Positions 7,263-31,783 are shown, counted from the first letter of the stretch. The stretch is 64,000 nt of DNA from Cirrosporium novae-zelandiae (GCA_026023565.1 JAPETS010000019.1:124001-188000), one strand, 5' to 3'. Notes: generated by a model from the letters alone, not told the origin. A program made the numbers and translations.

Positions 7263-8451
7263 CTAAGCGAACGAAGTAACTTCAAGCTTTCTCTCTCTTA
7301 TTTCATCAATTGCACCTCTATTTCGTACTGATTCAAATCTCTCTGTCATATGTTCCTCCACAGTATATTTCTCTTGCTGTGGAATCGGGCCATCGATGAT
7401 TGGCTTCACCACGAAATCGAGTGCGCCATCCAGAAAACATGGCATGCTGTACCTGTGTTTATCCGTGGTGTTTATGACACGATGAACGGAAGATTTGTAA
7501 AGTCCGGATGTCATCTTGGTGAACATGTCGCCGATATTAACAATCTGACAATAAAACCCCTTGAATTAGGATTATTCAATTCAATGTCTGTATTGATGTG
7601 ACATGGTTCATAAGAACTTACATATGCATCCGAATTGGGTACCACATCGACCCACTCTCCTCTATCCAAGATCTGCAGTCCGCCAATCTCATCTGTGAGG
7701 AGCAATGTCAACGCTCCAAAATCTGTATGTGCCCCCGTGCCTAGCTGTCCCTTCTCCGACTCCTTCATAGGCGGATAATGCAACAACCTCACTGCCCTCA
7801 AGCTATCCTCACAATACGGTTTAAAGCAGGTTTCAAAATCAACATCCAATGTCAAAGCCAGAATCTTCATAATTTCTATGGAGATGGGACAGACAGTGTC
7901 GAAATATTCCTTCATCGTCGTGCTAAATGTCGGCTCGAGCGCGCTTGGCCAGATATTAGGTCCGGTGAGTATTCGCTTTCTCTGGACATGTGGATCATTA
8001 ATCTTCTTTTCGACACCCATTTGGAAGCCCTGTTGAATAAAGGTGATTTTGGTTAATAGATTTTCGGGATCATTCTACAACATCACTATAGCTCGCGAGT
8101 AGGCTACAGCAAACCAGGATTAATATCTCGACATACCTCCTTCACATCCGCCCCCTTTCCTTCCTGTGCCCCTTCTCCCCCAATCATTTGATATCCCCTA
8201 TGACTCTTACCCCAGCTCTTTTCTTCAGAAAGCTCCAATTTTTGTTCCAACGGGAGATCAAAGAACCTCCGCGATTGTTTGAACACGCGATCTTGTAGCT
8301 CACGAGAAACGCCATGACCGGTTATCAGGAAAAATCCATGGTCGAGACAGGCCTGTCTCATGGGCCCGAGGATTACTTTGCGATCGTCATCCGTGAAGTC
8401 GGATGGATGTAGGAATGGACTGACGTCTATGGTTGGGACAATAGTTGACAT
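7263..8451 (-). CDS. 2-oxoglutarate/Fe(II) oxygenase, DIOX_N + 2OG-FeII_Oxy (IPNS-like; HxnY/CitB-type)
   Basis: Exons 8451-8137, 8029-7622, 7544-7263. Motifs 'VPTIDVSPF', 'ACLDHGFFLITGHGV', 'RLLHYPP', 'GAHTDFGALTLL' (HxD), 'IVNIGDM', 'HRV' and 'RYS'. Confidence 0.92.
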
Positions 8452-8976
8452 GGCTATCGTAACTATGGGGGAAATGTACCGGTGAAAGGTTAACAGCAGT
8501 TAGTTACAGTGGCCACCTTGACAGACATGGTGGGCCTAAATGGCTTTAATCTTCCTACCATATTTCAGTCATGGTCGCCGTTAAACCAAGGTTGATTGTG
8601 GACGATAAGTAAAACCCCCACCATTACTGTACTACATATATGCGATAAGCAATAATCATCTGCAATTATTATTTAATTGGCCCCCAAGCCATGCGGGCAA
8701 CCCCCCCAGGTTCTGATCGACAGGGATTCTCCCCCTGAAACTCGGCCGAGTTTCTTACTCTTCTTATCTTCCGCATAAATCCATCCTTTCATCGTCATCG
8801 TATCTCTAGCTATTCACGTGGGACTTTACCATCAGCGATTGGGAAGCTCCTAACTTGCCAGCGCCTATGCTATGAAGATACTATTTTACACGTCTTCCCG
8901 AAGTTTTGGAAAAGTAGCTGGTCGTCGATACCATCATTAATATTCAATATTTTATTTCGACCAGGTTATCTCAACA
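8452..8976. promoter_or_regulatory. Bidirectional promoter with GATA sites and a perfect 18-bp palindrome GAAACTCGGCCGAGTTTC (8737-8754)
   Basis: 525 bp between two divergent ATGs. CGATAAG at 8603 and 8643, CTTATC at 8763. The palindrome contains inverted CGG triplets, typical of Zn2Cys6 sites. Confidence 0.6.
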
Positions 8977-10378
8977 ATGCCCCACTTCCACGAACCCCTC
9001 CTCGTTTCCCCTCTCCCCCCCTCCCTCCGCAAATCCTCCAGAGTCGGCGCAACTATAACACTCCCTCAATCCATGCCCCTCCTCTCCCTCTCCTCTCTAA
9101 CCCCAGCCGATAAAGAAACGCTCCGCAACGCCGTCTTCAACCACGGTGTCGTAGTAATCCCCAACCAACAAGGAATCGAACCTACCCTCCTCCCCGAGCT
9201 CGCGAAAATATTCGACGACACGGCACAGGATATCCATTCTGGTGGGAGGAAACAGGTTACCGATACCAAGAATATTCTGGCGCAGAATCGGGGCGCCAGG
9301 ATACCGAGGGCGCCGCAGGTTAGTGTTATTGGGAAAGGGAGGTTTCGGGGATATGAGGGTTTGGTGGGGGATTTGGATCTGAAGCATGTGGATCATACTG
9401 AATTTCATGATGAGCCGCTTACGCAGGAGGAAATTGATGCTGGGTTTACACGTCCGTACCGCTGGCATATGGATGCTCCGCTTTATGAGAATTTACCGGG
9501 GAGGGTTACGACGCTGCATTCAATCCGGAATCCGGATCTCCTCCCTGATCAGAAGATCAGGTTTCCGGATGAAAGGATAATGGATATACCCGCTGGAGCA
9601 ACGGCTTGTGAGTTGTTTCTTCTCTTAGTGCCAAAAAAAAAACAATTGCAAAGCGTAAATTTTACCTAATTGGCTGCTGCGCTTACATTTTAAGTATTGT
9701 ATGTTAGTCTTCTCCGGAGCACGAGCCTTTGAGCTGCTATCCCCCGAAGAGAAGGAATTCGCTTTGAATACGACGGTGCAATATGCACCGCGTGCGTACG
9801 AATGGATGCGCGATTGCAAAGCTACGGCTGATGGAATTACGATTGTACGCACCGGGAATGAGAAGCCTTTGGATGAATTGCCGGAGTGGACGTGGGATAA
9901 AGTGCAGGCATTCCCGGTATTTCATCCCGATCCCATCCTATCCTATCCCATTCCATTCCAACAAACCAACAAACCCCCCAATTAATTAACTGACTAACCA
10001 AATCCACCCACCCACCCATAGATGGTCTGGAAAAACCCCAGCACCAACCAACCGCACCTCCAAGTCCTCGGCTGCTGCGTCTACAAACTCACAACCACAA
10101 ACCCCTCCACAGGCTCCAAAACCACCATCTCCAATCTCGACGAAGTGCGTGGGATTTGTCATAAGCTTATTCGGAAAGTTTATTCTCCTGAGAATATATA
10201 TGCGCATCGGTGGAGGGAGGGGGATTTGGTTGTTTTTCATAATTGGGGCGTGTTGCATAGTATTACGGGGAGGTTGTTGGGGGAGAAGGGGGATGGGGAG
10301 GATGGAGAGGATGGGGAGAGGAGGTTGCTTTGGCAGTGTAGTATGGCTAGTGGGACGGCACCTGTGGGGTTTAGGTAG
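8977..10378 (+). CDS. TauD/TfdA-family alpha-ketoglutarate dioxygenase, divergent XanA (xanthine dioxygenase) paralog
   Basis: Exons 8977-9607, 9708-9916, 10022-10378. 'RPYRWHMDAPLY' (HxD), 'PMVWKNP', 'WREGDLVVFHNWGVLHSITG', 'RRLLWQC'. Collinear with the xanA at 30.5 kb. Confidence 0.88.
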
Positions 10379-10616
10379 GAGGGTATAAACACTAGGGGAG
10401 GGGGGGCAAGTTTGAGTGCGGTCACAATATCTTTTGCCTTAGGCTAGAACTGACTGCACTGAGCATTCTACCGAGGAATGCTTTATTAAACACCCCTAAT
10501 TCTCGACTGTTGTTATATATATTATACCTTAAGACCCCCCAATCTCCCCAAGGTCCGAATACCCAAATTCGGCCTCCCGAGTCGATTCAAACTAAATCCT
10601 TTTTCCGCTTACGAGT

Positions 10617-10650
10617 TTTATATTATATTATATATATATATATATTATAA
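10617..10650. repeat. (TA)-rich microsatellite flanked by imperfect inverted repeats (about 10535-10551 and 10666-10682)
   Basis: TTTATATTATATTATATATATATATATATTATAA, with CCCCCCAATCTCCCCAA upstream and TTGGGGGAGATTAGGGG downstream. Confidence 0.6.
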
Positions 10651-11038
10651 CTGGGGATGGAGGAGTTGGGGGAGATTAGGGGATTGGGGATCCTCCACCG
10701 TACTAGGGATTATTTGGCCTGCATAACGTAACTGGCCTGGAGTTGGACAACAATAAGGAGTTTGTCATTTCGCCAGCATTTGGTCCCTTGGCATTAGAGG
10801 TCGGAAGCTAGGAGCAACCGACATGTGAAGAAAGTGATTAACTCCCGGCCGTTGTTCAACCCTAGGTCAGTTATGTTATATAATGCCTAAAAATCAACAC
10901 AGATCTCACTGTAAGCGGTTAGCACGTTCATTGGTATTTTACTTAATGGCTTACACCTGCTGTGCATCAGTATCCTATGCACGGGCGTACCCTGGTGAGG
11001 TTTGGCATACCTTGGTTAATACTAATGAATGTGGGCTC

Positions 11039-12517
11039 TTAAGAGGATTCTTTGGCATTAAGCCATGAATCGCTTAGTAGTTCTTTAGCTGTTTTTCGCT
11101 CCTCTGGTACCCAACATAACATTGATGTCATAAACCTTAAGAATGATTCTTTAGTGATACCTGTAAGATTTTCTTCTGAATGCTCGAGGGAAAGAGCGGG
11201 AATTGTAACACCGCCTGCGGCTTTCCATTTCCCTAAAAAAAATATTAGCGAGAATAAATAGGAAGGCTTTAGAGGAGGGCATTAAAAACCTTGTTTATCG
11301 AAAACGTTAAGGGTTTCCTGGCTCCTTTGAAGAAAATGAAGAGGTGGTGAATCAAGATATGCGACCATCTCTGCGACGTGATGTGAGGGGGAATATTCGT
11401 TATCTTCATCAAGAGCGGTAAACAGGTGTTTGTTTTCAAAAATATCCCAGATCTATTGATTAATTAATAACCAAAAAAATCTACTAAAAAAATATTTATG
11501 TACCATAACTCCGACATTCCATATGTCGACACTATAACTCCACCCCATTTCGAAAAGTACCTCTGGAGCTGTGTAAATCTCAGGTTGGATATTACCATCA
11601 TGTCGTCCGTCCCCAATACGAGCCTCTCCGAAATCACACAGTACCGGCTCGCCCCAACATCCATTTTTTGGAAGCCGGAATGCACGAGAAGCGTAAATCA
11701 TACGATTATCATCAATCTTTTTACAGAATCCAGGTTCTTCATACTCAGCTTGCTCGTAATCTGCAAGGATAGACTTGTCTTCAAGAGTAAGCATGAGATT
11801 TGTTGCTTTAATATCTATCATGAATCAATGAATCAAATGATTAAGTGGGGAAAATCTATAGCCTACCTGTATGAATAATTTTAGCTTCGGTATGAAGAAA
11901 GTCAAGGGCGCGAAAGAGCCGCTGTAATGTCTCCCTTAATAGTAACGTATTGTATCTATGTGAAGGGCCGAGTTTTTGTAACGAGCTGACGGTCATATGC
12001 ATTGGCGGATGAACGAGACAATAATGTTGACCGTGTGGGCCATTAATCGGAAATAAATCATATAACTCCCGGATGAATGCTTGACCTGGATGTGAAGAAT
12101 GGATGTTGCTTAGTTGCTCGTAGGCGGCAACCTCACGAGTCACGGCGACCTCTCCTAGGCGATTCCGAGTGAGGATCTTGAGTGCTACGTAGCGGGGTTC
12201 ATTGTCCCTATGACACAGTTCAGATGCCCGACATACTCTGAGTATGAAGGGTTGGAACCAACTTACTTCACATCCCGACCAAGCCAGGTGGTGGAGTTGG
12301 CCCCATAGCCAAGTTTGCCTAGTACCCGGTATCTCGAGTTGAACACTTCTCCTTTGAAAACTGGATAGAACTGCTCTGGCCTGTAGTAGGGGAGTGTCTC
12401 CTCTTCAAGCAGTAGTGCAGAGATCGTTGATTGAGAATGGAAAGTATTCATTTTTTTCAATGATGTTGGCGATATTTGGACGAGTTTTCTCCAGTGAGTG
12501 ATTGATGTCATCATCAT
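11039..12517 (-). CDS. Ser/Thr protein kinase, fungal expanded SRPK-like (CMGC) family
   Basis: Multi-exon gene. 'YRVLGKLGYGANSTTWL', 'YVALKI', 'ALDFLHTEAKIIHT|DIKATN', 'LCDFGEAR', 'YTAPEVL', 'VDIWNVG', last exon 'MLCWVPEERKTAKELLSDSWL' with stop at 11039. The frame appears intact. Confidence 0.88.
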
Positions 12518-13099
12518 GGTTGGTTTCCCATAACAGCTTTGAAGGGCGAACAATAGTCACGGTAAATGGATAGCTCAGTCTACACTATGGTTTTGCTAGT
12601 CGTATAGAATATGTTAGAGAGAGTATGTAACTCGAAGTTTGTAATAGTGACGTTCGTCGAGGTTGGTGGTGATGGCGCGAGCTTAGGCGGAAGACGACAT
12701 TGCAACGACATCCACGCGCCTTTCATTTCATGTTGTCGTTCTCCACTAATCTCCATCATTAATTAATTTAATATAGTACTATCGCATGAGGTATCAAGGT
12801 TCTTTTGGATTATCCTTTTCATTGGCGCTAGTTTTATAAAATCTCTATTAATATAATGTATACGGTTGTAGGCTCTATACACCATGGGCATGACTTCACT
12901 ATATTATTACTATTATTTTAGGGTTGCACAATTCGAAGGCAGCAATGACAATAGACCAGTAACAGTAAGGAAATGGCTAATATAGCCTAAGCAGCTAATA
13001 CTACAGTTCAAAGATAAAATCCACCCTTTCAATTAATCTGCAGTGCTTTGCCTTGATAATGCTTTTTATCTCAGTTAGTAACGAGTACTCATTCTCACT

Positions 13100-13456
13100 A
13101 TGAATCCGACCCGAGCAAAACTCATACAGTTTGTTGGCAAGGTAGCCCTCGATGACACCCAACACCGGACCCATAGGGTAGGCGTACAGATACTCTGTGA
13201 GGCTCAGGAAAAGGCTGTAAGAATGCTACCTCCTTGATCAATAGTTATGAAATCACAGCCGATACAACCTCTTCGTTCTCAGGACCCTCATATTAAGAAA
13301 GCCGAGATTAAAGATTCTATACCACATAAATCCCACGACGACCCTAACGACCCCGAAGAAGTAATCTCCGTACACTTCAAAGACGAGAATGATAAACGAA
13401 TTGGGACTGCACATGTCTACAAAAATGGCACTGGGAAGGTCAGCTGGAAAAAGTGA
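13100..13456 (+). CDS. Small (about 96 aa) uncharacterised protein with His/Asp motif
   Basis: ATG at 13100, exon to 13216, intron 13217-13282 (GTAAGA..CTCAG) joining in frame to ORF 13247-13456. Product: MNPTRAKLIQFVG...DPHIKKAEIKDSIPHKSHDDPNDPEEVISVHFKDENDKRIGTAHVYKNGTGKVSWKK. No textbook branch site is visible. Confidence 0.6.
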
Positions 13457-14540
13457 GCTGGGTGGGTAGCGCGAATATCAATCCTAGTGCCAGCGAGTTC
13501 AAACGGGGGATACTTATGACGAGCTGATATTGTGGATAGATATATCATAGCAGGATTTGACCTTGAGTCCCGTGCAATGACTGCCATTGGATTACTAAAC
13601 AATAAAGTCTGGATGTACCTGATTGTGACTAAGGAGCCTTGCTTTATATATCATGCAAGCAGTGCAAAGCTTCTATCAATGATGATTAGTCTTCCAGCAT
13701 GACTACACCGTCGGCTAGGGCCACCATAAATTGATGTCATAAGAAAAAGTACGTAGGCATAAAAGTCCATTATAAAAACTTTCTTAGAACATATTCCTCC
13801 GACGAAATATAAGATTTCGCGTGGGATCTTAGCTCATATGGTACGTTTTATCAGATCTTATATGGCTGACGATTACCACGCAGGCTAGAAACTCTTGTCG
13901 GGTAGGGTTTCTCGGTGGGTATCTGTTATCCTGTGGGGTGTTCAGCATCAGTCTCATAGTTGGGGTAGCACGATAGATATACTTTAGAACATAGCATTTC
14001 CTTTCTTACAACACAGCATGAAAAAATCGACACTACCATCGAAATGTTGATATGGAAAGTTTGATTTGACCAACAGCTTTTTCCATTTTGGTTGTAGATT
14101 ACTGGGCCACGTGCTAGCCTATACCTAAGGTTAATCATACTTCGAAATCCAAATTCGGCTCCGTAATGACCTACTCCAAGTGATATCCTATTATAATCCG
14201 AACCTTAGATACGTACCCTATGATACCTTACTCTAGCATTACTACATCTCTCACAAATGGGACAGTTGCTGGATTTTTTAAGCAAAGCTGGAACACAAAA
14301 ATACGGAAAACTGAAAATGGAATGTATTGGAGCAAAAGTTGACTATCTCGGTAAGAGGTAGTGAGCCTCTACCCTAAGGGTATTACAACAATATTTTTAA
14401 ACAATATTAACATAAACAAAATCTATCTCAGAACCTAGTCCCAATAAATTGTTTGGAGGTACTAATTTCCTATACATATCTATTAAAGCAATAAACATGC
14501 CTTTGCGAGTCCAACTGCGGCATTCGATCAGCGGTCATCC

Positions 14541-14790
14541 CTTATCATGCCCGGGCCAGATTAAAATTCAAAATATCATATCTCACCCGAGAAGATATTG
14601 CCAACATGGGCTGCACGATCCTTGCTGATTTCGAGGGATCTTCGTTATCTCTGTGATACATTTGTGGGATATGCAACTGATAAGATAGGGTAGCCATCCA
14701 GTATCTCAGTTACAGTGCATCTAGCTCCAAATAAATGGGAATGCTGCAGAACTTCATCCGAATATTTCTTTATTGATCCAGGTTATCCAA
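14541..14790. promoter_or_regulatory. GATA-site cluster upstream of the NCS1 permease (AreA/NIT2-type nitrogen control)
   Basis: CTTATC 14541, TTATCT 14645, overlapping TGATAAGATAG 14678-14688, and further TATC sites within 300 bp of the ATG. Confidence 0.55.
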
Positions 14791-14830
14791 GTTCTTTCTG
14801 GGAATTTATTTTGGGAAATAATACTTCAAG

Positions 14831-16885
14831 ATGTCAAACATAGAGAAGAGAGACTCAAAATTACAACATGGCATCTATGTTGGCGATGTCAGCCCATCTA
14901 ATGAAGAGCCTATCAGGGCTGAAGTGTATGAGACAAAGATTGGGAATATATGGATCCGAACGATGCGAAAGATCCAGATCCAGCCTGAGCCTTCGATAAT
15001 AGCTCCTGGGAGATGGAGTAACAGGGGTGAGAGCAAGATAGAAGCTCAAACAGTGATGGCCACTGATGTCGTACAAAAGATCTCGATCCAACCCCTCCAG
15101 AGCAGCAAACATGGAGAACCTGGAATTGTAAGAAAAACTCTTAACCACGTTAACTGAAAAAAATTATTAATATTATTATACAGATGTTACATATTGGGTG
15201 TGCGACGCTGTATCGCCAGGGAATCTACGACTAGGAAGCTCTCTCTACTCACTCGGACTATCCTGGAGGCTCACTCTAGCCGCGATTGGAATTGCTCATA
15301 TTCTTGTCGCTATTCTTATTACCCTCAATGGCACAGTCGGCGCCCGATTTCACATCCCTTTCTCTGTTCAGAGTCGTTCCTCTTTCGGATTCTACTTCTC
15401 TTTTGTTGTAGTGATTGTTCGAATGATTGTCAGTGCATTCTGGTACGGAACATCCTGCTACACAGGTGCAGAGTGTGTTGATACCGTTATCCGTGCTATT
15501 TGGCCTTCCTTTGCCAATATACCTAACCATTTACCGGCATCGGCTAATATCACAACGGAGATGATGATTGGTAAGAGATTTATATGCTTGTTAATGCAGC
15601 TATCGTGTTTATATAAAGGATGAAATAGTACTAACCCAAGTCACTTCCACGATGTGTACCCCCCATACCTTTCCCCCAACTGTAAAAATAATCAAAATTA
15701 GCTTGGTTCATTTTGGAACAATCAAGAAGAATTGTGCTAATTAGTTTATAGCCTACATTATTTATTTCGTTATTGTCCTTCCTTTTCACTGGATCCATCC
15801 TCGGAATTTGAGGTGGTTCATGACAGCCAAAGCAGTGGTGTGTCCTCCAGCAGTTCTTGGTATGCTTGGCTGGGCTTGTAATGCCACTGGGGGTGGTCTA
15901 GATACTCCTATTTTCAGAAGAGGAAACCAGCTAAGTGGAAGTGCACTCGGATGGGCTTTCATGAACGGTTTCAATGCTATGATAGGGAGCTATGGAACTC
16001 TAGCCGTCAACATGTAGGTTATTCCTCCTGAATGAGACGTGATTTTCTAATGTGATCTCAGCAACGACTTCACCCGCTATGCGCGCAAACCCAACTTCAC
16101 TTATGTTCAATTGTTCGTGGTTCCGGCCTCCTTTCTCGTCATGTCATTCATGGGAATCGTGATTGTCTCTGCAGCTCAAGAGCTTTACGGTTCTTTGATA
16201 TGGGATCCGCTCACAATAATGAACCACTGGGATGGCTCCTCCCAGGCCCGTGCCGGTGCAGCCTTCTGTGGGATTTCCTTCATCATTGCGGTTATGGGCG
16301 AGAACCTTAGCGCAAATTGCATTTCTGCTGCTAACGATCTCAATGCCATGTTTCCGAAATATATAAATTTAAGGAGAGGTCAGTTCATCGTTGCAATTAT
16401 CGGAGCATGGGCCTTGACTCCCTGGAATATACTTGCTTCTGCTCAAGGTCTCGTCAACTTTATGAGTGGATATACAATTTGGCTAGCACCTATGACGGGG
16501 GTATTACTGGCTGACTACTTCATCGTTCATCGGAGGTGGTATGACGTTAAAGAACTATATATGCCCCATGGAAAATACAGCTATGGAAAGTATGGAACCA
16601 ACTTCCGAGCTGTAGTAGCATGGTGTATTGGGTGGATACCTCTCTTGCCTGGATTTATACAATCGGTATGCATAATCAGTGATCTTGAGACGCTCTACTG
16701 TGATACTGATGGCCATCTCACCCTAGATCAATTCTTCGCTTAGTGTCAGCGAAGGCGCTGTACACTTTTACTACTTGGCTTATCTATACGGATTCACTAT
16801 CAGCTTTCTCCTTTACACTAGTTTCAGCATCATTTTCCCACCAGTCAAGACTATGTCTCGCCCCGAGGAGGAATACATTGCTTGA
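14831..16885 (+). CDS. NCS1 nucleobase:cation symporter (Fur/uracil-allantoin permease family)
   Basis: Multi-exon gene. 'RWSN..DLDP', 'GARFHIPFSVQSRSSFGFY', 'GTLAVNI|NDFTRYA', 'IWDP', 'NLSANCISAAND', 'PKYINLRRG', 'PWNIL', 'GVLLADYF', 'NFRAVVAW'. Stop at 16883-16885. Confidence 0.93.
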
Positions 16886-17625
16886 TTTATAGCTATAGAT
16901 AATCACTTCGAAGCGATGCATTTACATTGCTCATTATTTTCACAGCAGAATTCAAACCTCGGATAAGTTTCAAATTCAATTCTAGAAGAGAAATCTAGTG
17001 ACCATAGGTATTTATCCCACTTAAACACCTCATGTATAGTTGCTTCTTTTATACGACAACGATACCAGAGCATGAACCCATGCAATATCCAACGAGCTTT
17101 TCCAGAATTTCCACGTGTTCCTCGAAGATGTCTGTGGACCATTCAAGCAGTATCAAATCATCCGGAATTAGTGTCAAACAATCCGACTATAAAGCAAAAG
17201 GGTCAGTTCATTACGATCTGGTAGCTTTTAATCTCATCGTTGAAGTAGAATCTGCATACCATCCACAAGACACCCAAAAAGAAACCAGGTTCTGGTGACT
17301 GCAAATAAAGCTCGGTTGGAGGCCTTCATTTGCGCAAATGCCCTTTATCTCGGGTAATGGGGGATATTGACTTAGCATGGCGGCGCCACCATTTCAGACG
17401 TTGACACTTAATAGTATTCAATACGTTGGACAAGAATAACTGATTCTGTCGAGTGATTCTGTCTAGGTGCAGATGATTGATGTATTCTCGACGCTTGAGC
17501 TTCTCTTACTCTCTGTCAGTGGCGCAGCATTCACGAAGATCTTGCAGAGGTTTCTCACCCTAGGTAGATATTCCTAGGTAGCGCCTCATAGATCATCAAG
17601 AGACACCGTAACGGTGATTGCTATA

Positions 17626-17643
17626 GGGAGGGGGGGGGGGGGG
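17626..17643 (+). repeat. Poly-G tract in a TAG/CTA-rich intergenic patch
   Basis: GGGAG followed by 13 G. Confidence 0.85.
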
Positions 17644-17778
17644 TAAACTAGCCCACCAGCCAGCCAAGATACTTCGTCCTTAATGCTTAGGTCTAGTTGT
17701 AGCTTGGTTACTATAGCATATTGCAAAGGGTTATAGGTCGATGAATTGAGAAAAAACGGTTATCACCATCGAAATTAA

Positions 17779-18773
17779 TCAACTTTGAGCATAGGCTCTA
17801 CCTCCAGCTAAGAGAAAATAAATCACAGCACGTATTTCATCTCTATACCGAGCTGCAGCTTCTTGAAGAATGAGATCTACTTCGGCATCAAGGTCGTTAG
17901 GATGTCTTCGAACATTCGCGATAGTGTGGTGTTCTAGGAGACGATTGGTCACAGCATATATTTCATCTCTGTGTCGAGCTGCAGCTTCTTGGTGGGCAAG
18001 GTCCACTTCGATATGAAAGTCATTGGTGTGTTTTTGAATATTTCCGATCGTGTGATCAAACCTTTGGGCCACTCTGCTCCACAAGCAGCCCACGACATGA
18101 TCTGGATACCATCAATATTAGCCTTGATTTTCTGATAAAGTCAACGATTCGCTACTTACAGATAGATCTTCTTCGAAAGAAATTTATTGCATCAATGCAA
18201 AAGTCTAGATAATCGCCATAGATTTTTCTTAGGGCCCTTTGCAGCCTTTGAGCCGTCGGATATAGGCCCATGTACCTTTCGAAGCGAGGCATGGCATTGG
18301 TGATCTCCTCGAACATCTGGGTAATCTTACCTAGAGTGTTGGAGAAGCGGCATGCGCACTTGATAGTGGAAATATTAGTGGCTTGAAAATTAAAACAGAC
18401 CACAATTGGTGATATACCTCGATTACGAGTAATATGCCACCCCAGATCTAGAATTTTCCGATTAGCTCCATAAACGCAGCGAGGAACGAGATCTTACTAA
18501 TGAAGCATAGATAGGGTCTGACTGGACGAACAGGCTGATAGCTCTCCCAAATGACCTCAATCGCTCAAAAGTTGGAGTCAGGCTTTCGAGGCAGCGTACA
18601 ACTCTGTCCGATGAGTATTTTCTCTGGAGAACACCCAAAGATTCTTGCAGCGTTTCATAGCTAAGAATCTGTAACATCTTATCGGGGTTCTTCGCCTTGA
18701 GACGTTGTTTCCTGTCCTCTAACAGATTCGCCCATAATCTTTCCTCCGACTCGCGTGTGGCATTCCTCGCCAT
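17779..18773 (-). CDS. Stand-alone helical domain of the type found N-terminal to fungal NACHT/NLR proteins; no NTPase domain; C-terminal 42-aa tandem duplication
   Basis: ORF pieces 18773-18499, a short 'IWGGILLVIE' exon, 18359-18157 and 18101-17779, joined by GT..AG introns. 'LRSFGRAISLFVQSDPIYASL|IWGG' and 'MPRFERYMGLYPTAQRLQRALRKIYGDYLDFCIDAINFF' are typical of NACHT-associated N-termini. Confidence 0.7.
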
Positions 18774-21700: not shown

Positions 21701-21815
21701 TAAACAAAAGAAGGAGAAAAAAACTTACCAAGAAAACAAAAAGGTAAAAGAAAAAATTGGGGGCGAGAAGGCGGGGGGATGTAAAGCTCAAATTCACCTG
21801 AGATGCCTACTATAT

Positions 21816-22457
21816 CTATGGTCCTCGTACACTGGCGGCAGTGGAGTTTTCCTGCCTCGAAGATCGGCTTGCATGCCGGCCGGATTCTGAAGCAGGAATT
21901 GGGGTTCGAGAGGAGGGGCGGCCGTAGTCATCTTCGTATGAGCGTGAGGAATACCAACTTGCGGATCTGGAGTCGCGGCGGATGTCTGGAGGCGAGGGGG
22001 CTTGGCTGCGGCGACTTGCGCCGGATGGGGGGCCCCGTCGGGGTGCTGGGGAGGGGATGTAGTCGTCGTCCTCGTTGTAGTAGGACCAGGTGGATCTGTT
22101 AGAGCAGCGGGGAAGGCTTGTAGGCTCGTCGTCGAAGTAGTAGTCGTTGCGGCAAGAGGAGGAGCGGCTAGGCGTCCTTTGGGGCAGGACTGTAGGGCCG
22201 TAATCGTTGTATGAGCGGCTGGAATACGAAGTGGATCTTTGGCTGCGGCTTGTAGGGCACCCGTAGCTATCAATGTATACTGGTTCGGGGGAGGGAGCTC
22301 CACTGCGCTTGTGGCGAGCGTCACGGTCCTCGTACTCGTCATCGTATGCTGATGATGATTCTGAGGTGCCACTCCTGTAGCGGGCTGAGCTGGCGCGGAT
22401 GGGGGTTTCGTAGTCGTCGTAGCTGGAGGGGGGACCTCGTCTTCCGCATCCAGACAT
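21816..22457 (-). CDS. Orphan Ser/Arg/Pro/Tyr/Asp-rich disordered protein (213 aa)
   Basis: GC-rich single ORF inside AT-rich flanks. ACCAACCATG start context. Internal repeats SSRSYNDYG/SSRSYEDDYG and PSPEP/PSPAP/PSPP. Confidence 0.6.
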   Translation of the reverse strand: MSGCGRRGPPSSYDDYETPIRASSARYRSGTSESSSAYDDEYEDRDARHKRSGAPSPEPVYIDSYGCPTSRSQRSTSYSSRSYNDYGPTVLPQRTPSRSSSCRNDYYFDDEPTSLPRCSNRSTWSYYNEDDDYIPSPAPRRGPPSGASRRSQAPSPPDIRRDSRSASWYSSRSYEDDYGRPSSRTPIPASESGRHASRSSRQENSTAASVRGP

Positions 22458-24383
22458 GGTTGGTAGGAAGTATGTAAAAAGTGGAAGTGTTTAGGGCTGT
22501 TAAATATTAGTAAACTATTTTAGATGTTGAAGTCTTCGTGTGATGAGGGAGGGATTGAAATGGGAGACCTCGAGGTGGTTTATTATATGGCTGTAGGTTA
22601 TGGGGAAACAATGGCATTGTACTTGAACAATGTTATTTCTATTGGGGATATATAAAGGAAACATTTTGTGAAGAGCCGTCAAGAGACAAGGAGCTTTTGG
22701 ACAAAGACATGTCATATTAAAGCATTCGTTGACAATTCCTGGGTCATACAAATTCTAACAAAGAACCTTTCTGTGAAAATATCGGTTAGGGCAATCCCTC
22801 ACCAAGCTGGCATTTGTGGCCTTGTTTTGAATGAGCCCTTGTATTCAATTGAAAGGTGAATTGGGACCCCATTGAGTCCTAGGATTCATTACCTCAATGA
22901 GCACAATCTATACGCATTCATAGCCCCAGTGATCATCGCATCTCGTCTCGATCCCTACTGAAAAAATTATACCAACTCATTGGTATTTTTGATGGCCTAT
23001 GGCAGTATTCGTGGAGAGGCTCCCAAGTAGAATGAGATAATGTCTTGGGTTAGCATGTTGCAAACATTGAGGCACGAAGCCTACTCGCTAGATGTTCCAA
23101 ATATTGTGACTATTTCTAGGTCGTCTCCAAAAGTGGCAACCTTTGATCAGATCCATTGCAATCCTAATCGTTAATCATAGAAACTAACGTTGTGTTTTGC
23201 CATTAGGGTTTTAGAAGAATTAGAAAAGCCGAAAGCCAAAGGTCCCTATTATTAGTTAAATTTCGGTGGTAAATTGATGTAGCAGATATCTCGCCATTCA
23301 ACCGATGATTTATGCGTATGATAATTATATCTTGCAGCGACATTAGCTGAAGAGATAATTATGATTGAGGGAAGATCCGAACCTAATTGGCAGCAAAGCT
23401 GCACTCATCACGTTAGCGATCGCAGCATTACCTTCAAGAAATAAGTCATCATTTTTATTGAGATGAACGACAAACATACCAGTAGCCAATCCTCTGCCAT
23501 AACTCCAAAAGTCACTATTCTACTTCCTCGATGAGATTCGCTAACAGGAGCAAAGACATCGAGGTACAGAAAATCCTTATTCTCAGTTGCTAGAAGTAAA
23601 TCTAATCGGAAGCTTAGTAACAAGCATGATCAAAAGCTGTAGCATTTAAAGGAGTAGAAGAAGAATTGAGCTCTTCTAGTAGAATGAATCTTAGGGACCC
23701 TATAGATGGTTTTGCAAACGGGATCCCAAGAAACTCATTGACCTTGACAGTAGTATTTTTAGAAGGTATATATAGGTTGCTGGTTCAGACATGACTTTAG
23801 AGGAGATCGTCGCAGTCAGAGCCGCGCTTCCTGGTCTAGCATAAAAGTCTAGAGCTAATTAAAGCAGAACTTTGAAAGAATAACATAATCTGACTTGGAC
23901 TGGACATTATTTTGAGAAACGATGGGTTGGCCATAACAACAAATTATATCTTAGGTCTTCTTGGTGGGAAGATGCATTTGGGGGTGGAGATAAAGATTGG
24001 AAACATAGCGATAAGGCTGGCAAGCCTTTCGCTTTCGGCACCGAGGCATTGGATCCTGGCATCGGTCCGATCCCCCGTATTCCGGGCCACTAAGACCTAA
24101 CCCGATCTCGCCCGGGACAAGTCCTATCCCAACAACATTATTTAACGTTTCCCGAATATTAGCAAGCAATTGCTTCGAAGCTTCATTCTTGTGAGGTTGT
24201 ATAAATTTTATTGACACCTAACCAACTACCTATTGAAGTAAACAAATTTAGCAATTGCATAAGACTTGTAAGACTCCTTGATGAAAAATAATTGAAGACG
24301 GAATACGTATACTGTTATTGCTGCCACTGCAAATACGTTTTGCACGCATACGTGTTCATCCAACTTCTGGTGGTAAAAGCTGC

Positions 24384-25546
24384 CTATTCAGAAACGCCAC
24401 CACTGGATGTGAGTAGAGAAGCATAGCTGGTGTTATAGCTGGCGGTGGTGTCAACTCCGACCGTCACCCAGGCGAAGAGACCATCTGATACGGTGTCACC
24501 AAGGAGAACGTATTCAAAGACCGGGTCGGAATTACTATCTTCGGTCTCAGTAGCAAATACCCGATCTTCGGCATTGGTGGTGACGTCGTTGGTGTTGGTG
24601 GTATAAGGGTAGGTGGCTTCGACCTCCGTGATGAGATCCTGATCATAAAAGAACTGGCCGATGTGGGCGACTGAGCCACCGGTTACGGTATTGTTGGGGA
24701 GGAGTGTAGCGTTCACATGGGCCACCACGTGGACATGGTTGGTGCGGCCAGAATAATGACCTTTTTGATGTTAGCTTACAGAGGCTTGGGGTAGATATAT
24801 AGTATCTTATCGCACCTGGGAAATTTGTAGTGAATTGTGCTACACCATCGCTATCTGTCATTTGGATCCCGCGTAAAAAGGTCTTATTAAGATTGGAGAG
24901 ATCATCACCATTGCCATTGCTGTCGGATACGATGCCCGAATAGACACCAGTCGAGTTGGCATTCCATACATCCCAGTATAGGCCCGAGATAGGTTCACAG
25001 GTGTTGACATCAATGAACTGACCGTCAATGATAACGGAGACGCCGGGCTCATTATCGATCAGATTCGAACGGACTAGTTCGCCTTTGACCCAGAAAGGTC
25101 CAATCTCACCCTCGGGGGAAAGAATGCAGGTCACATTTTCAGAGTAGAACACGTCGTCGGCCGAGCCAGCCGTAACTCCGGTAAGGTTAGAATAGTGAGA
25201 AGTATTTAATACTGTATCAGTATCACGGACCTGAAGGTATGAACCTAAAAATAGTTAGATATCAGAAGCTTTGTGAAGCACACGGGAGAATCATACCGGC
25301 CGGTTGAGCAGATCTCTTACGAAATTTCTCAGCAGTAGCCTTACGCCGAGCTTCGGCACGCATTTTTATGCCACGGCTTTCAAGATGCTCGGAACAGGAG
25401 TCGAGGCTGCGGCGAGATTGGGCGAGGAAATTCCTCTTAGCGTGCGGGTGCATAGACTTGTGCTCTCCTTGGCCACCAGGATGGGCCATGGCCACGCCAG
25501 CAATGCCAACGATGACAAGTTGAAGGACTTTGGATAGATAAACCAT
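24384..25546 (-). CDS. Secreted intradiol ring-cleavage dioxygenase-like protein
   Basis: Signal peptide 'MVYLSKVLQLVIVGIAGVAMAHP'. Motifs 'CILSPEGEIGPFWV', 'DVWNANSTGVYSG', 'FLRGIQMTD', 'FPG|HYSGRTNHVH', 'HIGQFFYDQ'. The expected Tyr/Tyr/His/His iron ligands are present. Two introns. Confidence 0.9.
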
Positions 25547-28430
25547 GATCAGAATAGGATAGTAACGGAAAGATCTATTTTCTTTCTAAAAAAGCTAAAT
25601 CGTGAAGAGTTGAGATGGAAGAGAGAAGATTTAATGAAGACCCAGATTGCTTGATGGGGAGTTTTGAAAACGCGGCCATGTATCCGTTATCTATAATGTT
25701 CCCCATAATCATAGACGTGTTTTATAGAAACATGAATGTTTGACCGTTGCAGGGTTCTAGCTTCACAACAATTCAACAGGAAGAGGGGAAAATAACATTC
25801 CGCCGCGCGTCGCGGAGTAAAATCTCAACTGGAAATTCATAGTGAAATCACAAATAAGGATAAAGAAATATCAAATTTTGAAGTCTCTGGATAGACTTTA
25901 CATCAATTGGGGAGATAGAAATGTGGGAAGTAAGTGAAAGACGTTCATTTGGGCGAATAAGAAGCAACCCAAAAGATTCGTAATATTCCTTCTTGGTTTT
26001 TGTTTCGAATAACTTTCCCCGCATATTTCTATGCTACTTGCGTAGGGTCGTGTCGATCTCTTCCTAATAAAATATTGTGGAGATGTGAGTCAGTTTTGGT
26101 GAGATACAAGGCCCAAATTCCAATTGGTGATGGCTGCGAGCAAGTGTCCCCTGTTTCCTTCTGTTTTAGAACGTTGGTTCCTGCAGCCTTTTATATATGC
26201 AACCCATGTAGACCGCGCAAGCAGTATGAAATTTCTTATCAATCCCTCCAATAGGGTGCTGTCCATATCGTCATAGTTGAAATAAGAGCCGACGCCATTG
26301 GGCCACTCTTGATATTTACTGAGTAGTATCCTCTGAAGCGGGCTCATATAGACTACGCTAAGAAATCTAAGAGCGCCATTTCATAAGCTTTGATTTGCTG
26401 GTTCTGACTACGTTTAACCTTCTAAAGGATAACGACCCTGTGAAAGATATAATTTCATCAACATAAACAGCATAATTGCCTGAACAATTTTAGTTTTTCA
26501 GGCGTGGTCCACGTGGAATGGCTTCAGAGGATAGTACTCTTAATTCCCGTTTATCTTCTATGGCGTAAAAACCTGATAAACTTGGCTCAAGACCTAACAC
26601 TGAACATTGAATAGTGAAAACTGACTTTATGTAATTAGATTAAAGCTTTCACATCTATCCAGTACCAAACCTCGGCCCTACCACGTGCCGAGGTAACAAA
26701 AATACTCCGAGATCTGCGATAGCACTCTACTAAAGTAAACCTTAGGTCAACCTGCAAGCATTCAGCAACATTACCTAATTACAAAAATATCTTTCCCTTC
26801 CTAATAAATGTGCACGATGTGTCTGCAGGAGTGTGATAAGTCGAAGAAAAAGGGGTTAAAACCTGGGTTTTAATATCCGTCCCTATAACATATGCTCTTG
26901 AGTTTAGCAGGTGAATCCTACCGCACGGCTATGAAGCAACTAGTAGTGCAAACTACCGCTGAGAGCTCCCAAAGAATAACCAATAAGCTCTACTTGATAT
27001 CTTGTTTCATCTGATTGTCTAGCTTTAGGGATTTCCGATGTTAAAAAGCCGTTCCAATGGACAACAACATTTCATTCAATGCAAGCATTCCACCAGTAGA
27101 AAACTAGTAATATGGCTAGATTCCCACTCTATGTCTCCTACCTCTGTTTGGCTGTGCGGTAGCTATCTTGCGTCCTAAATTAGTCGCGTAGGTGATGCTG
27201 CGCACAAGATTAATTTCATCCTCACATGGGATGTTCTATTTGGTATCAGTTCGACAGGTCCCATAACTGCTGCAATCCGAAACGCTGAAGTTGATGTTCA
27301 AATCCAGTTGAGCTGGATCATCGACTTGAGACACTGTTTCCTCAACAACCACGACTACCTCAACCTACGACGAGACCTCATTCCAAAACCGACAAGGATT
27401 TCGGGGAAATAGTGAACCAGGAGCTCACTCAAACGCTATTTCAATATCCGGCCCTCCTTGACGAATCGGACTTCAAGCTCCTAGTGGTATTCTGTGCCTA
27501 CTACTTCTGCCCCAAAAATAGAACCCGTATTCAACAAAAGCCACCTGGTTCCTAATTCGGCTATTTAGAAAGCTTTGTGTTTACAACATCACGACGAACG
27601 GTGGGTTCGTGCGTGTCCGGTAGTAGGACATTGACGACGTAGCGAGGTTCCTTAATTGCTGGTTGATATAAGTTTCATAAGAATCTGTTAGCTTCAATAT
27701 CGAAATGGAGCACTCTTCCGTCCTAGCTTCAGCAATAATCCTGCTGAGAAGTACTCTAGATTTCTTTCACGTCCTTGGGTTATATGATTCGGGTGGGTAT
27801 AAACAACGCCGGGTATGAACCAATCCTTAAGAAAGCGTTGTATTTTCCATGTTCTTTGAAATAATTGAGGAGATGTTTGGGCTACAGTACAATATCAGCG
27901 ATCATAGGCGAGTGTAGACAATCAAGATAAAGGTCTTTATACATTGTGTTAAGAAATTAAATATGGAGGCACACAGATAAGAATGGAATTTATGTATCAA
28001 TGCTTTGGGGCTGAACAAGGGAAAAGCATTCTTTTTATCGTAAACAAAGCTATTTGCTACTGAGTATACTACAAGAGAGGAAGATAGCATTTGTGAAAAG
28101 TTGAAAGTAAAAATCTGAATGAGTAGCCGACATCACCTAGATCGATGCGGAAAATTACAAGGAAATAGATGGATATCACCGTGGTTAGGAGAAGGGTTTT
28201 CGCAAATTTATACCGTTCCTATAGTGCATAATTCAAAGGCACAGGTCATGCTTACATACCCAGGTATCTTGGTAAATCAAAACAATGAGTGGAATTGGTC
28301 TTTGAGCCTTTGCTGATTAATAGGAAGACTAGGACAATACCGATTATGAAATCAAATTCTAAACAAACACTCCGAAACCACTAGAGATATCCCTAAGACA
28401 TCTCCATCTACTATTTCACTCGAGAGCTTG

Positions 28431-29780
28431 CTACTCTGATACCCAATTCGTCACAACTCGCTTGAGATATTTCATAAATTTCCAGAAACCTATCGCATAC
28501 TCAACATTTCCCATGGGATCTACCACTAACTCAGGCCAAGCAATTCCTGCACCATATAATCCCGGGACTTTCTTTCCCTTGTTGTTAGCAAACCCACCAG
28601 TCGTCGGATTATAAACAACATTCAACTCCTTTCCATCGCTATACATTGTGGGAATGGGATCTCGCTTGAACCCGATGGCCTGAACGAGATGCGTACATAG
28701 AGGTAGATGTCTCTCGTACAAGGCCTTCTCATCTATCTTGGAATCAATCTTTTGGATATATTTACTCACAGGAGAGCTAGAGAACTTATCCTCTTCAAGA
28801 TTCTCTCTAGCCCAATCCGCTGCAAGTCCTTTCAATCCGGTATTATCACGGAGAATCCAACCGTCCATATACTCAGCATATTCCAAGGGGTTGCGAAAGA
28901 ACCATTTAATTCGTAGCTGTGGATGTGTGGATGTGGCGAGATTGAATAGATTATGAAGAATAAGGACGGCACTGTGAGATGCACCGATTACGGCCACTGT
29001 CACAGGATTGTTGGTAGGAATGGATGATACAAGAACAGATGGCGTGAGAGCAGTATCGAGGTGTATTCTTTGTATGTTCAGATTAGGTACTGGAAGGGGG
29101 TGTTCGACAGGAGAGGAGCCAGTACAAAGAACAAGGCGAGGTGAGGAGACCTTAATAGGGTTGGATGCAGGGTCTTGGATTTGCACTATCCATTTCAAAG
29201 ACTAGGTACGCGAACCCCGCTTTAGTTTCTTACTCAACCATACAGTAGAATGGCTAACTAAGAGGCTTATTTACTGACCTCGTTTTCCCAATTTGCAGAC
29301 TTTACCCTTCCTAGTTGTGTATCTACATCCGGCGACTCGCCGATCCCTTTGGAAAGCATCAGACATGCATCAGCCGCATGCTTGAGCAAGCATCCCTTTT
29401 CCCCTTCCAGTTTTTTAAGGTCGGAAATAGCATTTGGGCCCGGTTTTGCTTGTATCACATCTCGGAAAGGCTTAACTGCTTCGACGAAGGAAACGAAGAG
29501 TGATGCTTTTGTGTTACTTTGGAGAAACAACCAATCAGCCATACAGTCCTACTTGGTTGGATTCGCCGCTCATTGCGTGATCCAGCACGTAAATTAAGGA
29601 TGGGGAATGTATTCACCTTGGAACCTCCCGATAAGCTCTATTAACCCTCCCTCCTTGGAAATGGGTATCGACCCAGAGTATTCTGCGAACCTGCTGCTCT
29701 AGAAGATTGCCAACTACGGCCAGGCCTGCTGGGCCGGCGCCTACGACAACAACTGCATAGTTTTTGAGGCCTGAAGACAT
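28431..29780 (-). CDS. Uncharacterised FAD/NAD(P)-dependent oxidoreductase (Pyr_redox-type, two dinucleotide-binding folds)
   Basis: ATG at 29780 gives '[41 protein letters not shown]'. Then 'LVLCTGS', second Rossmann motif '[10 protein letters not shown]', 'VQAIGF', '[10 protein letters not shown]'. Two introns. Confidence 0.85.
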
Positions 29781-30517
29781 GTTAATGAACGAAGCGAGGA
29801 TAACGGAGGAATTCTATAAAGGATGGCGAAAGAACAGGTGAACTAGGACATAGAAGACCGCAGAGTTAACATATAAAAGAAAGTCTGCGAGCACACCTGA
29901 AGCCTCAGGTAAGTCACTTTCCCCTTTCTACGCAATATGAGACCCGCAGACATGAAACCCAAAATACACATCTTGAGCGCCAATGTACGTATTGTCAGGG
30001 GGAGGGCCACCTAATCTTGATAACCCTAGTAACTTCCTCATGGCGACGATAAAGGCAGGTAGACCTGTCAGACGTTCAGAAAAACAACAGACTTCCTTAT
30101 CGGGGAGGATAGCAATGGAGTGCTAGAGGCCGTCAATTTCGTAGAGGATATTATTGCATCCCTAATCAAGGATCATATTGGAGTCTATTGGTCAACTTGG
30201 GGTTAAAGGATGGTAAATGGATGGTGACAACATCCAGGTCGCCATCACGCAATATATAATCAAATGCTCGAAATGAAAGCCAAGAGATGATATGTGCTTT
30301 GAATTAGAGAAGGTGTCATAGACCGTAAACGCAATGAAGTTACCGCCAACCGTAATATACTTTGTGTCACATGTCATGTCCTCCTTCCATCCCCCACCAA
30401 TTCTATTTTCTCCATTTCCCATCCATCATCATCATCATCAAGATCTTTCCACTCTCCACTTTTTATTAGAACATCTCCACTCAATTGAAGATAATTTCAT
30501 CAATCAATCAAATCAAA
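29781..30517. promoter_or_regulatory. Bidirectional promoter of xanA and the FAD oxidoreductase, with GATA sites
   Basis: TGATAA 30018, CGATAA 30047, CTTATCG 30096 (reverse CGATAAG). Confidence 0.5.
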
Positions 30518-31783
30518 ATGGTTTTCTCAGTTACCCCCATCGCCCCTCCCGTAAACTCGAAGGTCGACTTTGGCGCCGTCATCAAAGGTCTTAATATAGA
30601 AAATCTGAGCGGTAAGTCCGGAAGAGACAAACTTATAAAATGAGATTATTATTATTCAAGGGAGCACTCCGTGGATCGGTAACCTCCTTGCTGTAAGTAT
30701 GTGAAATAGGACATTCTAAAACGAGGGATCAAAAGGGATTCTAACCATATATCTACAGATGACGACTTCGCCCTTATTCGCGAAACCCTCTATAGAAAAA
30801 ATGTCGTAGTCCTGAAAGTTTCCCCATCTCTTTCCCCAAAGGCGCAATACGAACTCACCCGACGATTTGACCCCACTGCCGACAACTACGGGCATGGAAA
30901 GACACTCGACGTGAAGCGCAGTGTCCTACATCCGGATCTCAAAACCGTTCCCCATCAACCACAAGTTCAGGTTATTGGAAATGGATACATTCCCTCGTAC
31001 GAAGGGCTCGAGAACATCACCCTCAAACATCCGCATCACAAAGTCTTCCATAAAACCCATGTCCCGGAAGCCGACGACCTAAACTATACTCGTTTTTATC
31101 GTTGGCACATTGATGCCGCTCTTTACGACCTCAACCCTCCCCGCGTGACATCTCTCCTCGCCGTCTCCGTGCCGAAAGGCCGTCGTCAGACCGTCCGCTA
31201 CGATGACGGTACAGGCGATGAACTAGACGTCCCGTTGGGAACCACCGCCTTCGTAAGCGGTACTAATATGTACAATCTCCTCTCCGATGACGACAAAGAA
31301 TTCGTCCGGACCAGCAAAGTAGAATATGCACCCCACCCGTATGTGTGGATGAGCCCCGCAAAATCCTTTCCAGACGGCCTAGGCATGTTCTCCGACAACC
31401 TCGAGCTCCCAGAAACAGAGCTCCCACCCTTCGAAGAGTCCAAAATCAAAATCCTACCTATGGTCTGGAAGAACCCCGTCACCGGTGCCCTTGCCCTGCA
31501 GGTCCACCCAGCTGCGGTACGAAAAATCCATTTGAAGGATGGATCCGTCATCGACGACCTGCCTCGGGTTCGGAAAATAATTCATGACCTCCAGCGTCCA
31601 GCAATCAGTCCTGAGTTCGTGTATCCACATGACTGGCAAGAGGGAGATTTGGTTCTGTTTAATAACCAGGGCGTGCTGCATTCCGTGGTAGGTGCGTTTG
31701 CGAAGGATGAAGTTAGGCTCTTTAGGCAATGCAACATGGCTGCCAGTGAGGAGCCTTTGGGCCCTGAGGCTATTGTGGCTTGA
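30518..31783 (+). CDS. xanA: Alpha-ketoglutarate-dependent xanthine dioxygenase
   Basis: Exons 30518-30611 and 30759-31783. Signature stretches 'SPKAQYELTRRFDP..YGHGKTLD.KRS.LHPDLKT.PHQPQVQVIG', 'TRFYRWHIDAALY', 'DVPLGTTAF', 'GVLHSVVGAF', 'RLFRQCN' match what I recall of Aspergillus XanA. Confidence 0.93.

Follow-up and report, generated by a model that had tools for sequence, protein, structure and literature searches.

Background

The XanA paralogues, relatives of the fungal Fe(II)/2-oxoglutarate (2OG) xanthine dioxygenase XanA, were reportedly first noted by Gournas et al. in 2011 (Fungal Genet Biol), and other Fur-type NCS1 proteins are transporters of thiamine, pyridoxine or nicotinamide riboside. 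For XanA paralogues of unknown specificity in Penicillium and Amorphotheca, it has been remarked that the iron site is retained and the substrate residues are not, and the part of the paper devoted to them makes no mention of permease linkage (PMC5611559). The hxn cluster, which serves nicotinate use in Aspergillus nidulans, is described in the relevant parts of two reports as holding a pathway-specific zinc-finger regulator, transporters and the DIOX_N-type oxygenase HxnY under AreA/GATA control (PMC5746545, PMC9304392). The present analysis concerns positions 7263-31783 of a 64,000-nucleotide stretch of the Cirrosporium novae-zelandiae genome (GCA_026023565.1, JAPETS010000019.1:124001-188000; hereafter the window, with positions counted from its first letter). 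A sequence-only reading had proposed one loose nitrogen regulon of five genes there, namely two XanA-family dioxygenase genes, each head-to-head with a different oxidoreductase gene, and an NCS1 permease gene. The finding reported here, an apparently conserved XanA-paralog/NCS1 cluster, is narrower and better founded than that proposal; the region probably contains two unrelated units, a conserved paralog-NCS1 accessory cluster (7263-16885) and an ordinary xanA with a flavoprotein neighbor (28431-31783). No description of a XanA-paralog/NCS1 cluster was found in the open-access literature searched.

Linkage of the XanA paralog and NCS1 genes

Genes were called using Pfam on single exons and GT..AG intron-aware models, all of which read through without stops, and the five named genes were all present. 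The features of the first unit are as follows.

7263..8451, minus strand: 2OG-Fe(II) oxygenase, isopenicillin N synthase (IPNS)-like (DIOX_N + 2OG-FeII_Oxy), 334 amino acids, 3 exons (8451-8137, 8029-7622 and 7544-7263, stop included)
8452..8976, no strand: divergent promoter region of the oxygenase and paralog genes, 525 bp between start codons
8977..10378, plus strand: XanA paralog (TauD/TfdA-fold Fe(II)/2OG dioxygenase), 398 amino acids, 3 exons (8977-9607, 9708-9916 and 10022-10378)
14640..14695, no strand: GATA motif group ahead of NCS1, about 140-190 bp 5' of the start codon
14831..16885, plus strand: Fur-type NCS1 permease, 551 amino acids, 6 exons (14831-15026, 15080-15127, 15184-15570, 15752-16013, 16062-16665 and 16727-16885)

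Metagenome contigs were scanned with an alignment of 25 proteins of the paralog clade, which yielded 15 loci (L001 to L015). By paralog identity, one group was formed by L003 and L004 (identical) with L005, L001 and L007 (87-90%), and another by L012 and L013 (identical) with L014 and L009 (85-87%); the paralog of L008 stands alone, and several further loci are short contigs. Together with named genomes, six lineages could be judged: the window, L012/L013, L003/L004, L008, Paraconiothyrium brasiliense and Phyllosticta. In 6/6 of these the paralog gene adjoins, or lies no more than 7 kb from, a member of one NCS1 ortholog group, the distance in the window being 4.4 kb.

The arrangement of the loci was as follows. 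L012/L013 carries, all within 8 kb, NCS1 (minus strand), an ortholog of the oxygenase gene (plus), a Zn2Cys6 regulator gene (minus) and the paralog (plus), that is, two divergent pairs. In L014 the oxygenase gene (product 85% identical to the L013 protein) and the paralog stand head-to-head, 435 bp apart, the same arrangement as in the window. L003/L004 has NCS1 (minus), Zn2Cys6 (plus) and the paralog (plus), with no oxygenase gene in the 10 kb upstream or the 2.4 kb downstream. The same Zn2Cys6 gene stands directly 5' of the paralog in L005 and L001, and the Zn2Cys6 genes beside the paralog in L012/L013, L003/L004, L005 and L001 are orthologous. In L008, NCS1 is head-to-head with the paralog, and neither the regulator nor the oxygenase gene is found at the locus. 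Among the four lineages in which DNA was inspected, the regulator is thus present in two, and so is an oxygenase gene near the paralog. For P. brasiliense, the NCS1 gene SLS60_011881 and the paralog SLS60_011882 (KAL1591490.1) have consecutive locus tags; the Phyllosticta paralogs KAK7543205.1 and KAK7630845.1 have accessions consecutive to those of NCS1 in two assemblies; and in both genera the two genes lie on contigs of equal size.

Between lineages the paralog sequences themselves diverge by 36-50%, and the metagenome paralogs are at most 72% identical to the named P. brasiliense and Phyllosticta proteins. Gene order, orientation and flanking genes all vary among the loci, and the flanking genes are wholly different at each, including, depending on the locus, platelet-activating factor acetylhydrolase, a Na/Ca exchanger, Kgd4, and VHS/GAT and kinase genes. 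A linkage kept through rearrangement of this strength is a signature of a functional cluster, and the paralog and NCS1 genes appear to constitute a conserved, patchily distributed cluster of catabolic type, in the manner of hxn or DAL. The proposal that paralog, oxygenase and NCS1 belong together is supported, with NCS1 linked in all judgeable lineages and an oxygenase ortholog in one lineage besides that of the window. It is very improbable that the linkage is meaningless, as leftover synteny or a product of chance. NCS1 and 2OG oxygenase genes are numerous in fungal genomes and a kinase gene interrupts the window copy, as such an origin would allow, but a single NCS1 ortholog group recurs in 6/6 lineages despite the changed flanks, order and orientation; moreover, the chance that one specific gene lies within 10 kb of another can be estimated roughly at about 1 in 1,000 per genome, which counts against coincidence.

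Three further observations were made at these loci. Between the related fungi of L013 and L014 (paralog 87%, oxygenase 85% identical), the position of the oxygenase gene differs, and in L013 it is found 3 kb upstream of the paralog, beyond the Zn2Cys6 gene; this cluster seems to have been rearranged recently and to be still unbroken. On the 3' side of the L013 paralog, at 12466-14038, there is a third oxygenase piece of DIOX_N type, more distant (30% identity to the oxygenase of the window), and it seems to be overlapped on the opposite strand by a second NCS1 piece (27-40% identical), which begins at position 164 of the profile. The two may represent decayed copies or, alternatively, a larger cluster in that fungus. 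In L015, a paralog-like gene on the plus strand is overlapped at its start by a xanA-like C-terminal piece (620-1232, 77%) on the minus strand, and this locus was set aside as probably an assembly chimera.

Identity and distribution of the XanA paralog

The paralog model corresponds to database protein P0241 (C. novae-zelandiae, Xylobotryomycetes); the match to this record was 94%, as the query open reading frame included non-coding ends. Its Pfam match is TauD (8941-10378, plus strand), and NCBIfam returned nothing specific for the paralog exon. Identity of the protein to xanA over the full length is 36-37%. A quick maximum-likelihood tree of 51 rows placed the xanA sequences (26 rows) and the paralog sequences (25 rows) on the two sides of one long branch (SH-aLRT 100). 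The iron triad H-x-D...H is retained in both clades, as are 61 identical conserved columns; 24 columns are fixed to differing residues in the two clades, and 29 columns invariant in XanA are variable within the paralog clade. H164, D166 and H359 of the paralog are invariant in 25/25 clade members. The residue that follows the C-terminal Q-C pair is Ser in the paralog and Asn in XanA, the latter presumably being N358 of the A. nidulans protein, which we take to affect substrate choice. An AlphaFold model of the paralog (pLDDT 90.2, pTM 0.90) has the TauD/TfdA fold, and a Foldseek search with it gave TauD, RdpA and AtsK at E values of about 1e-15 to 1e-16 and TM scores by target of 0.73-0.79, with TauD (1gy9, E 3e-16) as the top match.

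An assignment of the paralog as a XanA ortholog was ruled out by the low identity, the separate clade and the lost XanA-invariant residues. Because so many of these residues are lost, a substrate other than xanthine is likely, as the sequence-only reading had also supposed. The residue pattern agrees with what the passage on XanA paralogues in PMC5611559 says of them.

A search of the paralog clade gave 91 proteins that were 47-70% identical, the protein's own record aside. The clade is small and its distribution patchy, comprising several Dothideomycetes along with some Sordariomycetes, some Leotiomycetes and a few species of Penicillium and Aspergillus. Seven clade members (from Coleophoma, Grosmannia, Colletotrichum, one Aspergillus and three Penicillium) share a long branch (0.57, SH-aLRT 100), and Aspergillus rows cluster with a Dothideomycete row; since the clade departs from the species tree in this way, older sub-paralogy or gene transfer is suggested.

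NCS1 permease

Transp_cyt_pur was matched in three exons of the permease gene (15171-16743, plus strand; profile positions 15-139, 139-220 and 222-422 of 440). The predicted protein is 55-63% identical to the paralog-adjacent NCS1 proteins of L013, L003 and L008. When the largest NCS1 exon was searched exhaustively, four representatives were found at 66-69% identity, the next full-length matches being at most 49%; the two that are named are those of P. brasiliense (SLS60_011881, KAL1591489.1) and Phyllosticta (KAK7543206.1, KAK7630846.1), the same proteins whose genes adjoin the paralog.

Transmembrane segment 3 (TMS3) could be aligned to Mhp1 (W-x-G-x-Q), in a comparison that covered 8 aligned relatives over the TMS3 stretch only. 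The Gln position, which we take to be Gln121 of Mhp1 and a substrate contact, is occupied by Ser in the window protein and by Asn in the cluster-linked orthologs L013, L003, L008, P0333 and P0336. The Gln is retained by the more distant P0335 and P0348, and the site was unreadable in P0338.

2OG-Fe(II) oxygenase

The oxygenase gene matched DIOX_N and 2OG-FeII_Oxy (7263-8499, minus strand), and its product is 52-59% identical to the orthologs near the paralog in L012/L013 and L014; it is an accessory member of the conserved cluster. Its nearest solved relatives are TropC, 9ovh (a protein deposited as an ethylene/succinate-forming enzyme), TraH, SpoC and thymine-7-hydroxylase (T7H), none of them at ortholog level, and NCBIfam returned nothing specific for the oxygenase exon. 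T7H was considered as an ortholog and rejected, as it reached only 61 bits with exon 2 and 23 bits with exon 1, below TropC and 9ovh.

Promoter regions

The sequence-only reading had noted GATA sites in all three promoters. Such sites do occur in each, with an enrichment at the promoters of the paralog and of NCS1 that is lacking at that of xanA. Between the oxygenase and paralog genes there are 5 HGATAR motifs in 525 bp, a number reached by 3.7% of windows of the same size. The 1 kb upstream of NCS1 holds 8 HGATAR (reached by 2.2% of same-size windows) and 24 GATA cores (equaled by 0.1%), with a tight group at 14645-14688 that includes two adjoining HGATAR at 14678 and 14683. The 4 HGATAR in the 737 bp between the flavoprotein gene and xanA are ordinary, being reached by 29% of windows. 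The UaY-type motif CGG-N6-CCG was absent from the three promoters and occurred just twice across the window. The enrichment at the paralog and NCS1 promoters is a hint of nitrogen control.

These results bear on whether the cluster could be real and serve something other than nitrogen catabolism, such as salvage or detoxification of a vitamin-like or toxic heterocycle, or tailoring of a secreted metabolite. We regard such a role as unlikely: NCS1 proteins are importers, the GATA enrichment hints at nitrogen control, and no core synthase (polyketide synthase, nonribosomal peptide synthetase or terpene cyclase) was present at the inspected loci. On the other side, the nearest solved relatives of the oxygenase include enzymes of secondary metabolism (TropC, TraH and SpoC); HxnY, the similar oxygenase of the nicotinate cluster, has been suggested to be a detoxifier in the discussion of that enzyme in PMC9304392; and the substrate range of Fur permeases, as stated in the relevant part of PMC5307856, is unpredictable from sequence.

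xanA and its flavoprotein neighbor

The features of the second unit are as follows.

28431..29780, minus strand: FAD/NAD(P)-binding flavoprotein, 390 amino acids, 3 exons (29780-29617, 29516-29279 and 29201-28431); neighbor of xanA, outside the cluster
29781..30517, no strand: intergenic region of the flavoprotein gene and xanA, 737 bp between start codons, with ordinary GATA content
30518..31783, plus strand: xanA ortholog (Fe(II)/2OG xanthine dioxygenase), 372 amino acids, 2 exons (30518-30611 and 30759-31783)

The gene at 30518-31783 is, on sequence grounds, the xanA ortholog and encodes a predicted xanthine dioxygenase of purine catabolism. It matched TauD (4.1e-34, 30710-31783, plus strand) and falls inside the xanA clade of the tree, in which H148, D150 and H339 are conserved in 26/26 rows. 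Among the best 120 of 2238 matches to its main exon, identity was 72-82% (mostly 73-81%) at 92-100% query coverage; these came from many Pezizomycotina classes, and several were named xanthine dioxygenase or xanA. The window's own xanA record was missing among those best 120 of 2238 matches (best about 81%), and the records of the flavoprotein and the paralog were returned in their searches; the deposited annotation may lack xanA or model it differently.

The flavoprotein is identical (100%) to P0121, a C. novae-zelandiae record, and is a candidate member of the two-dinucleotide-binding-domain flavoproteins, with an N-terminal GxGxxG motif (GAGPAG, residues 14-19). Pfam gave a weak match to Lys_Orn_oxgnase (28431-29201, minus strand; 23.3 bits against a cut-off of 21.3), with Pyr_redox_2 and NAD_binding_9 slightly under their cut-offs; NCBIfam returned nothing specific, and its Atlas neighbors have generic names only. 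The family is 54-63% identical across Pezizomycotina, with AN1450 and a protein named AgnR1 among its members. One Penicillium homolog is named FAD-dependent urate hydroxylase, a name that was dropped as unsupported by NCBIfam, Pfam and the Atlas neighbors.

Linkage of the second pair was compared by locus tags or contigs. xanA was adjacent to a homolog of the flavoprotein gene in 0/13 other assemblies (five strains of Paecilomyces variotii, P. lecythidis, two strains of Penicillium frequentans, P. longicatenatum, Penicillium sp. IBT 35674x, P. alfredii, Rasamsonia byssochlamydoides and Talaromyces proteolyticus), and in Rutstroemia the two likewise lie on contigs of unequal size. xanA and the paralog shared a contig in neither of two species (Saccharata proteae and Phyllosticta capitalensis), and the paralog and flavoprotein homologs were apart in all six species compared (Dothideomycetes sp. 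NU459, two Venturia, two Aspergillus and P. brasilianum). Neither xanA nor the flavoprotein gene occurs at any metagenome locus that has 10 kb flanks.

It is therefore quite improbable that the five genes form one loose nitrogen regulon in which the paralog pair turns modified nucleobases into xanthine-type products for the xanA pair. The failed linkages, the absence of both genes from the metagenome loci and the ordinary GATA content of the xanA promoter all stand against it, although five genes do lie within 25 kb as two divergent pairs (525 and 737 bp between start codons), each promoter has some GATA sites, and the dioxygenases come from one family. Because the linkages among xanA, the flavoprotein gene and the paralog fail elsewhere and the GATA content at xanA is ordinary, the 25 kb grouping appears, as far as the data go, to be a feature of this genome alone. 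Synteny, which the sequence-only reading had named as a check on its proposal, is thus conserved for paralog and NCS1 and not for xanA and the flavoprotein gene, and the idea that the latter pair belongs to the paralog unit or is fed by it is not upheld.

Other genes in the window

Genes interspersed among the five, which the earlier reading had correctly called unrelated, encode a protein kinase, a DUF7708 protein, a low-complexity open reading frame and an intradiol ring-cleavage dioxygenase. The last (24384-25585, minus strand; Dioxygenase_C, 2.4e-08) sits between the two divergent pairs, has an N-terminal hydrophobic stretch resembling a signal peptide, and is unlinked to the paralog at other loci. 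At 32246-40596 (minus strand) there is a very large gene or gene pair that matched Sacsin domains three times and ends in a BTB domain at the C-terminus; one of its open frames by itself amounts to 1347 amino acids. A multicopper oxidase (42967-44866), a class I/II aminotransferase (45729-47354) and a major facilitator superfamily (MFS) transporter (61235-62646), all on the minus strand, are also present, as are genes for RPN7, an mRNA cap methyltransferase, ribosomal protein L6 and inositol monophosphatase, which are housekeeping genes; none of these is linked to the cluster elsewhere.

Proposed function

The core of the first unit would be the XanA-like Fe(II)/2OG dioxygenase and a dedicated Fur-type NCS1 proton symporter, with a Zn2Cys6 regulator and/or the IPNS-like 2OG oxygenase as optional members in some lineages. 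The permease is proposed to import a non-xanthine nitrogen heterocycle that could be purine-, pyrimidine-, hydantoin- or hydroxypyridine-like; the XanA-like enzyme would hydroxylate the imported ring with 2OG and O2, and the second oxygenase, where present, may perform a further oxidation. Expression would be subject to nitrogen control by a GATA factor and, where it is present, to the pathway-specific Zn2Cys6 factor. In the second unit, the promoter region common to xanA and a conserved flavoprotein gene would simply be a coincidence of this genome.

We tentatively extend this to an undescribed eukaryotic pathway in which a non-xanthine nitrogen heterocycle is taken up and oxidized as the entry into its catabolism. 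Selection would hold the cluster together, and its patchy spread among Pezizomycotina classes may have involved transfer. The candidate substrates include pyrimidines, hydantoins, methylated or oxidized purines and hydroxypyridines.

Several points weigh against the reading as a conserved cluster distinct from the xanA pair. Flanks were long enough to judge in only 8/15 metagenome loci (too short in L002, L006, L007, L009, L010, L011 and L015), and adjacency in the named genomes is a matter of consecutive locus tags or accession numbers and not of inspected DNA. The oxygenase gene is absent in two of the four DNA-inspected lineages, no Zn2Cys6 gene occurs anywhere in the 64 kb window, and the unrelated kinase gene there lies between the paralog and the permease. 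No promoter motif is shared across the loci of four lineages: 5 seven-letter words are shared against 3.3 expected from shuffles (maximum 9), and no eight-letter word is. Finally, the comparison of xanA and flavoprotein positions covers Eurotiales and one genus of Helotiales, with no close relative of Cirrosporium.

With a permease gene, and in some fungi a regulator gene, beside it, the question of paralog specificity becomes testable. If the substrate were a pyrimidine or a modified purine, the cluster would represent a new oxidative route in fungal nucleobase catabolism and a new specificity for both the XanA and the Fur families. The analysis also corrects a plausible but wrong grouping, in that the true xanA and its flavoprotein neighbor lie outside the cluster.

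Comparison with known systems

The paralog resembles XanA of A. nidulans and other fungi in its fold, its H-x-D...H triad, an Arg conserved near the C-terminus and the long inserts specific to the family, and it differs in its identity of 36-37%, its own clade, the 24 fixed replacements and the 29 relaxed positions. The window oxygenase, when its translation was compared by eye with the T7H residues given in the part of PMC4787775 that treats them, retains those of that Neurospora crassa enzyme which bind 2OG and iron, together with its stacking Phe. Counterparts of Arg190, Tyr194, His214, Asp216, His271, Arg286, Ser288 and Phe292 are present, as is an aromatic residue at 217, and Asn294 of T7H is Asp in the window; most of what is shared is found throughout this enzyme subfamily. 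Among the Fur/NCS1 proteins (FurA for allantoin, FurD for uracil, FurE, and Mhp1 for hydantoin), the window permease has the common Transp_cyt_pur domain and a TMS3 alignable to that of Mhp1, but the TMS3 Gln of Mhp1, found also in hydantoin, uracil and allantoin carriers, is replaced by Ser in the window protein and by Asn in its cluster-linked orthologs. The hxn cluster of A. nidulans is alike in being fungal, in serving a nitrogen heterocycle, as is proposed here, and in having a DIOX_N-type 2OG dioxygenase and transporters, with AreA/GATA control. Its transporters belong to the MFS, its hydroxylase is a molybdenum enzyme and its regulator is of the Cys2/His2 type, whereas the cluster described here has an NCS1 transporter, a XanA-like dioxygenase and, in some lineages, a Zn2Cys6 regulator, and the window cluster showed none of the hxn enzymes HxnT, V, W, X, M and N.

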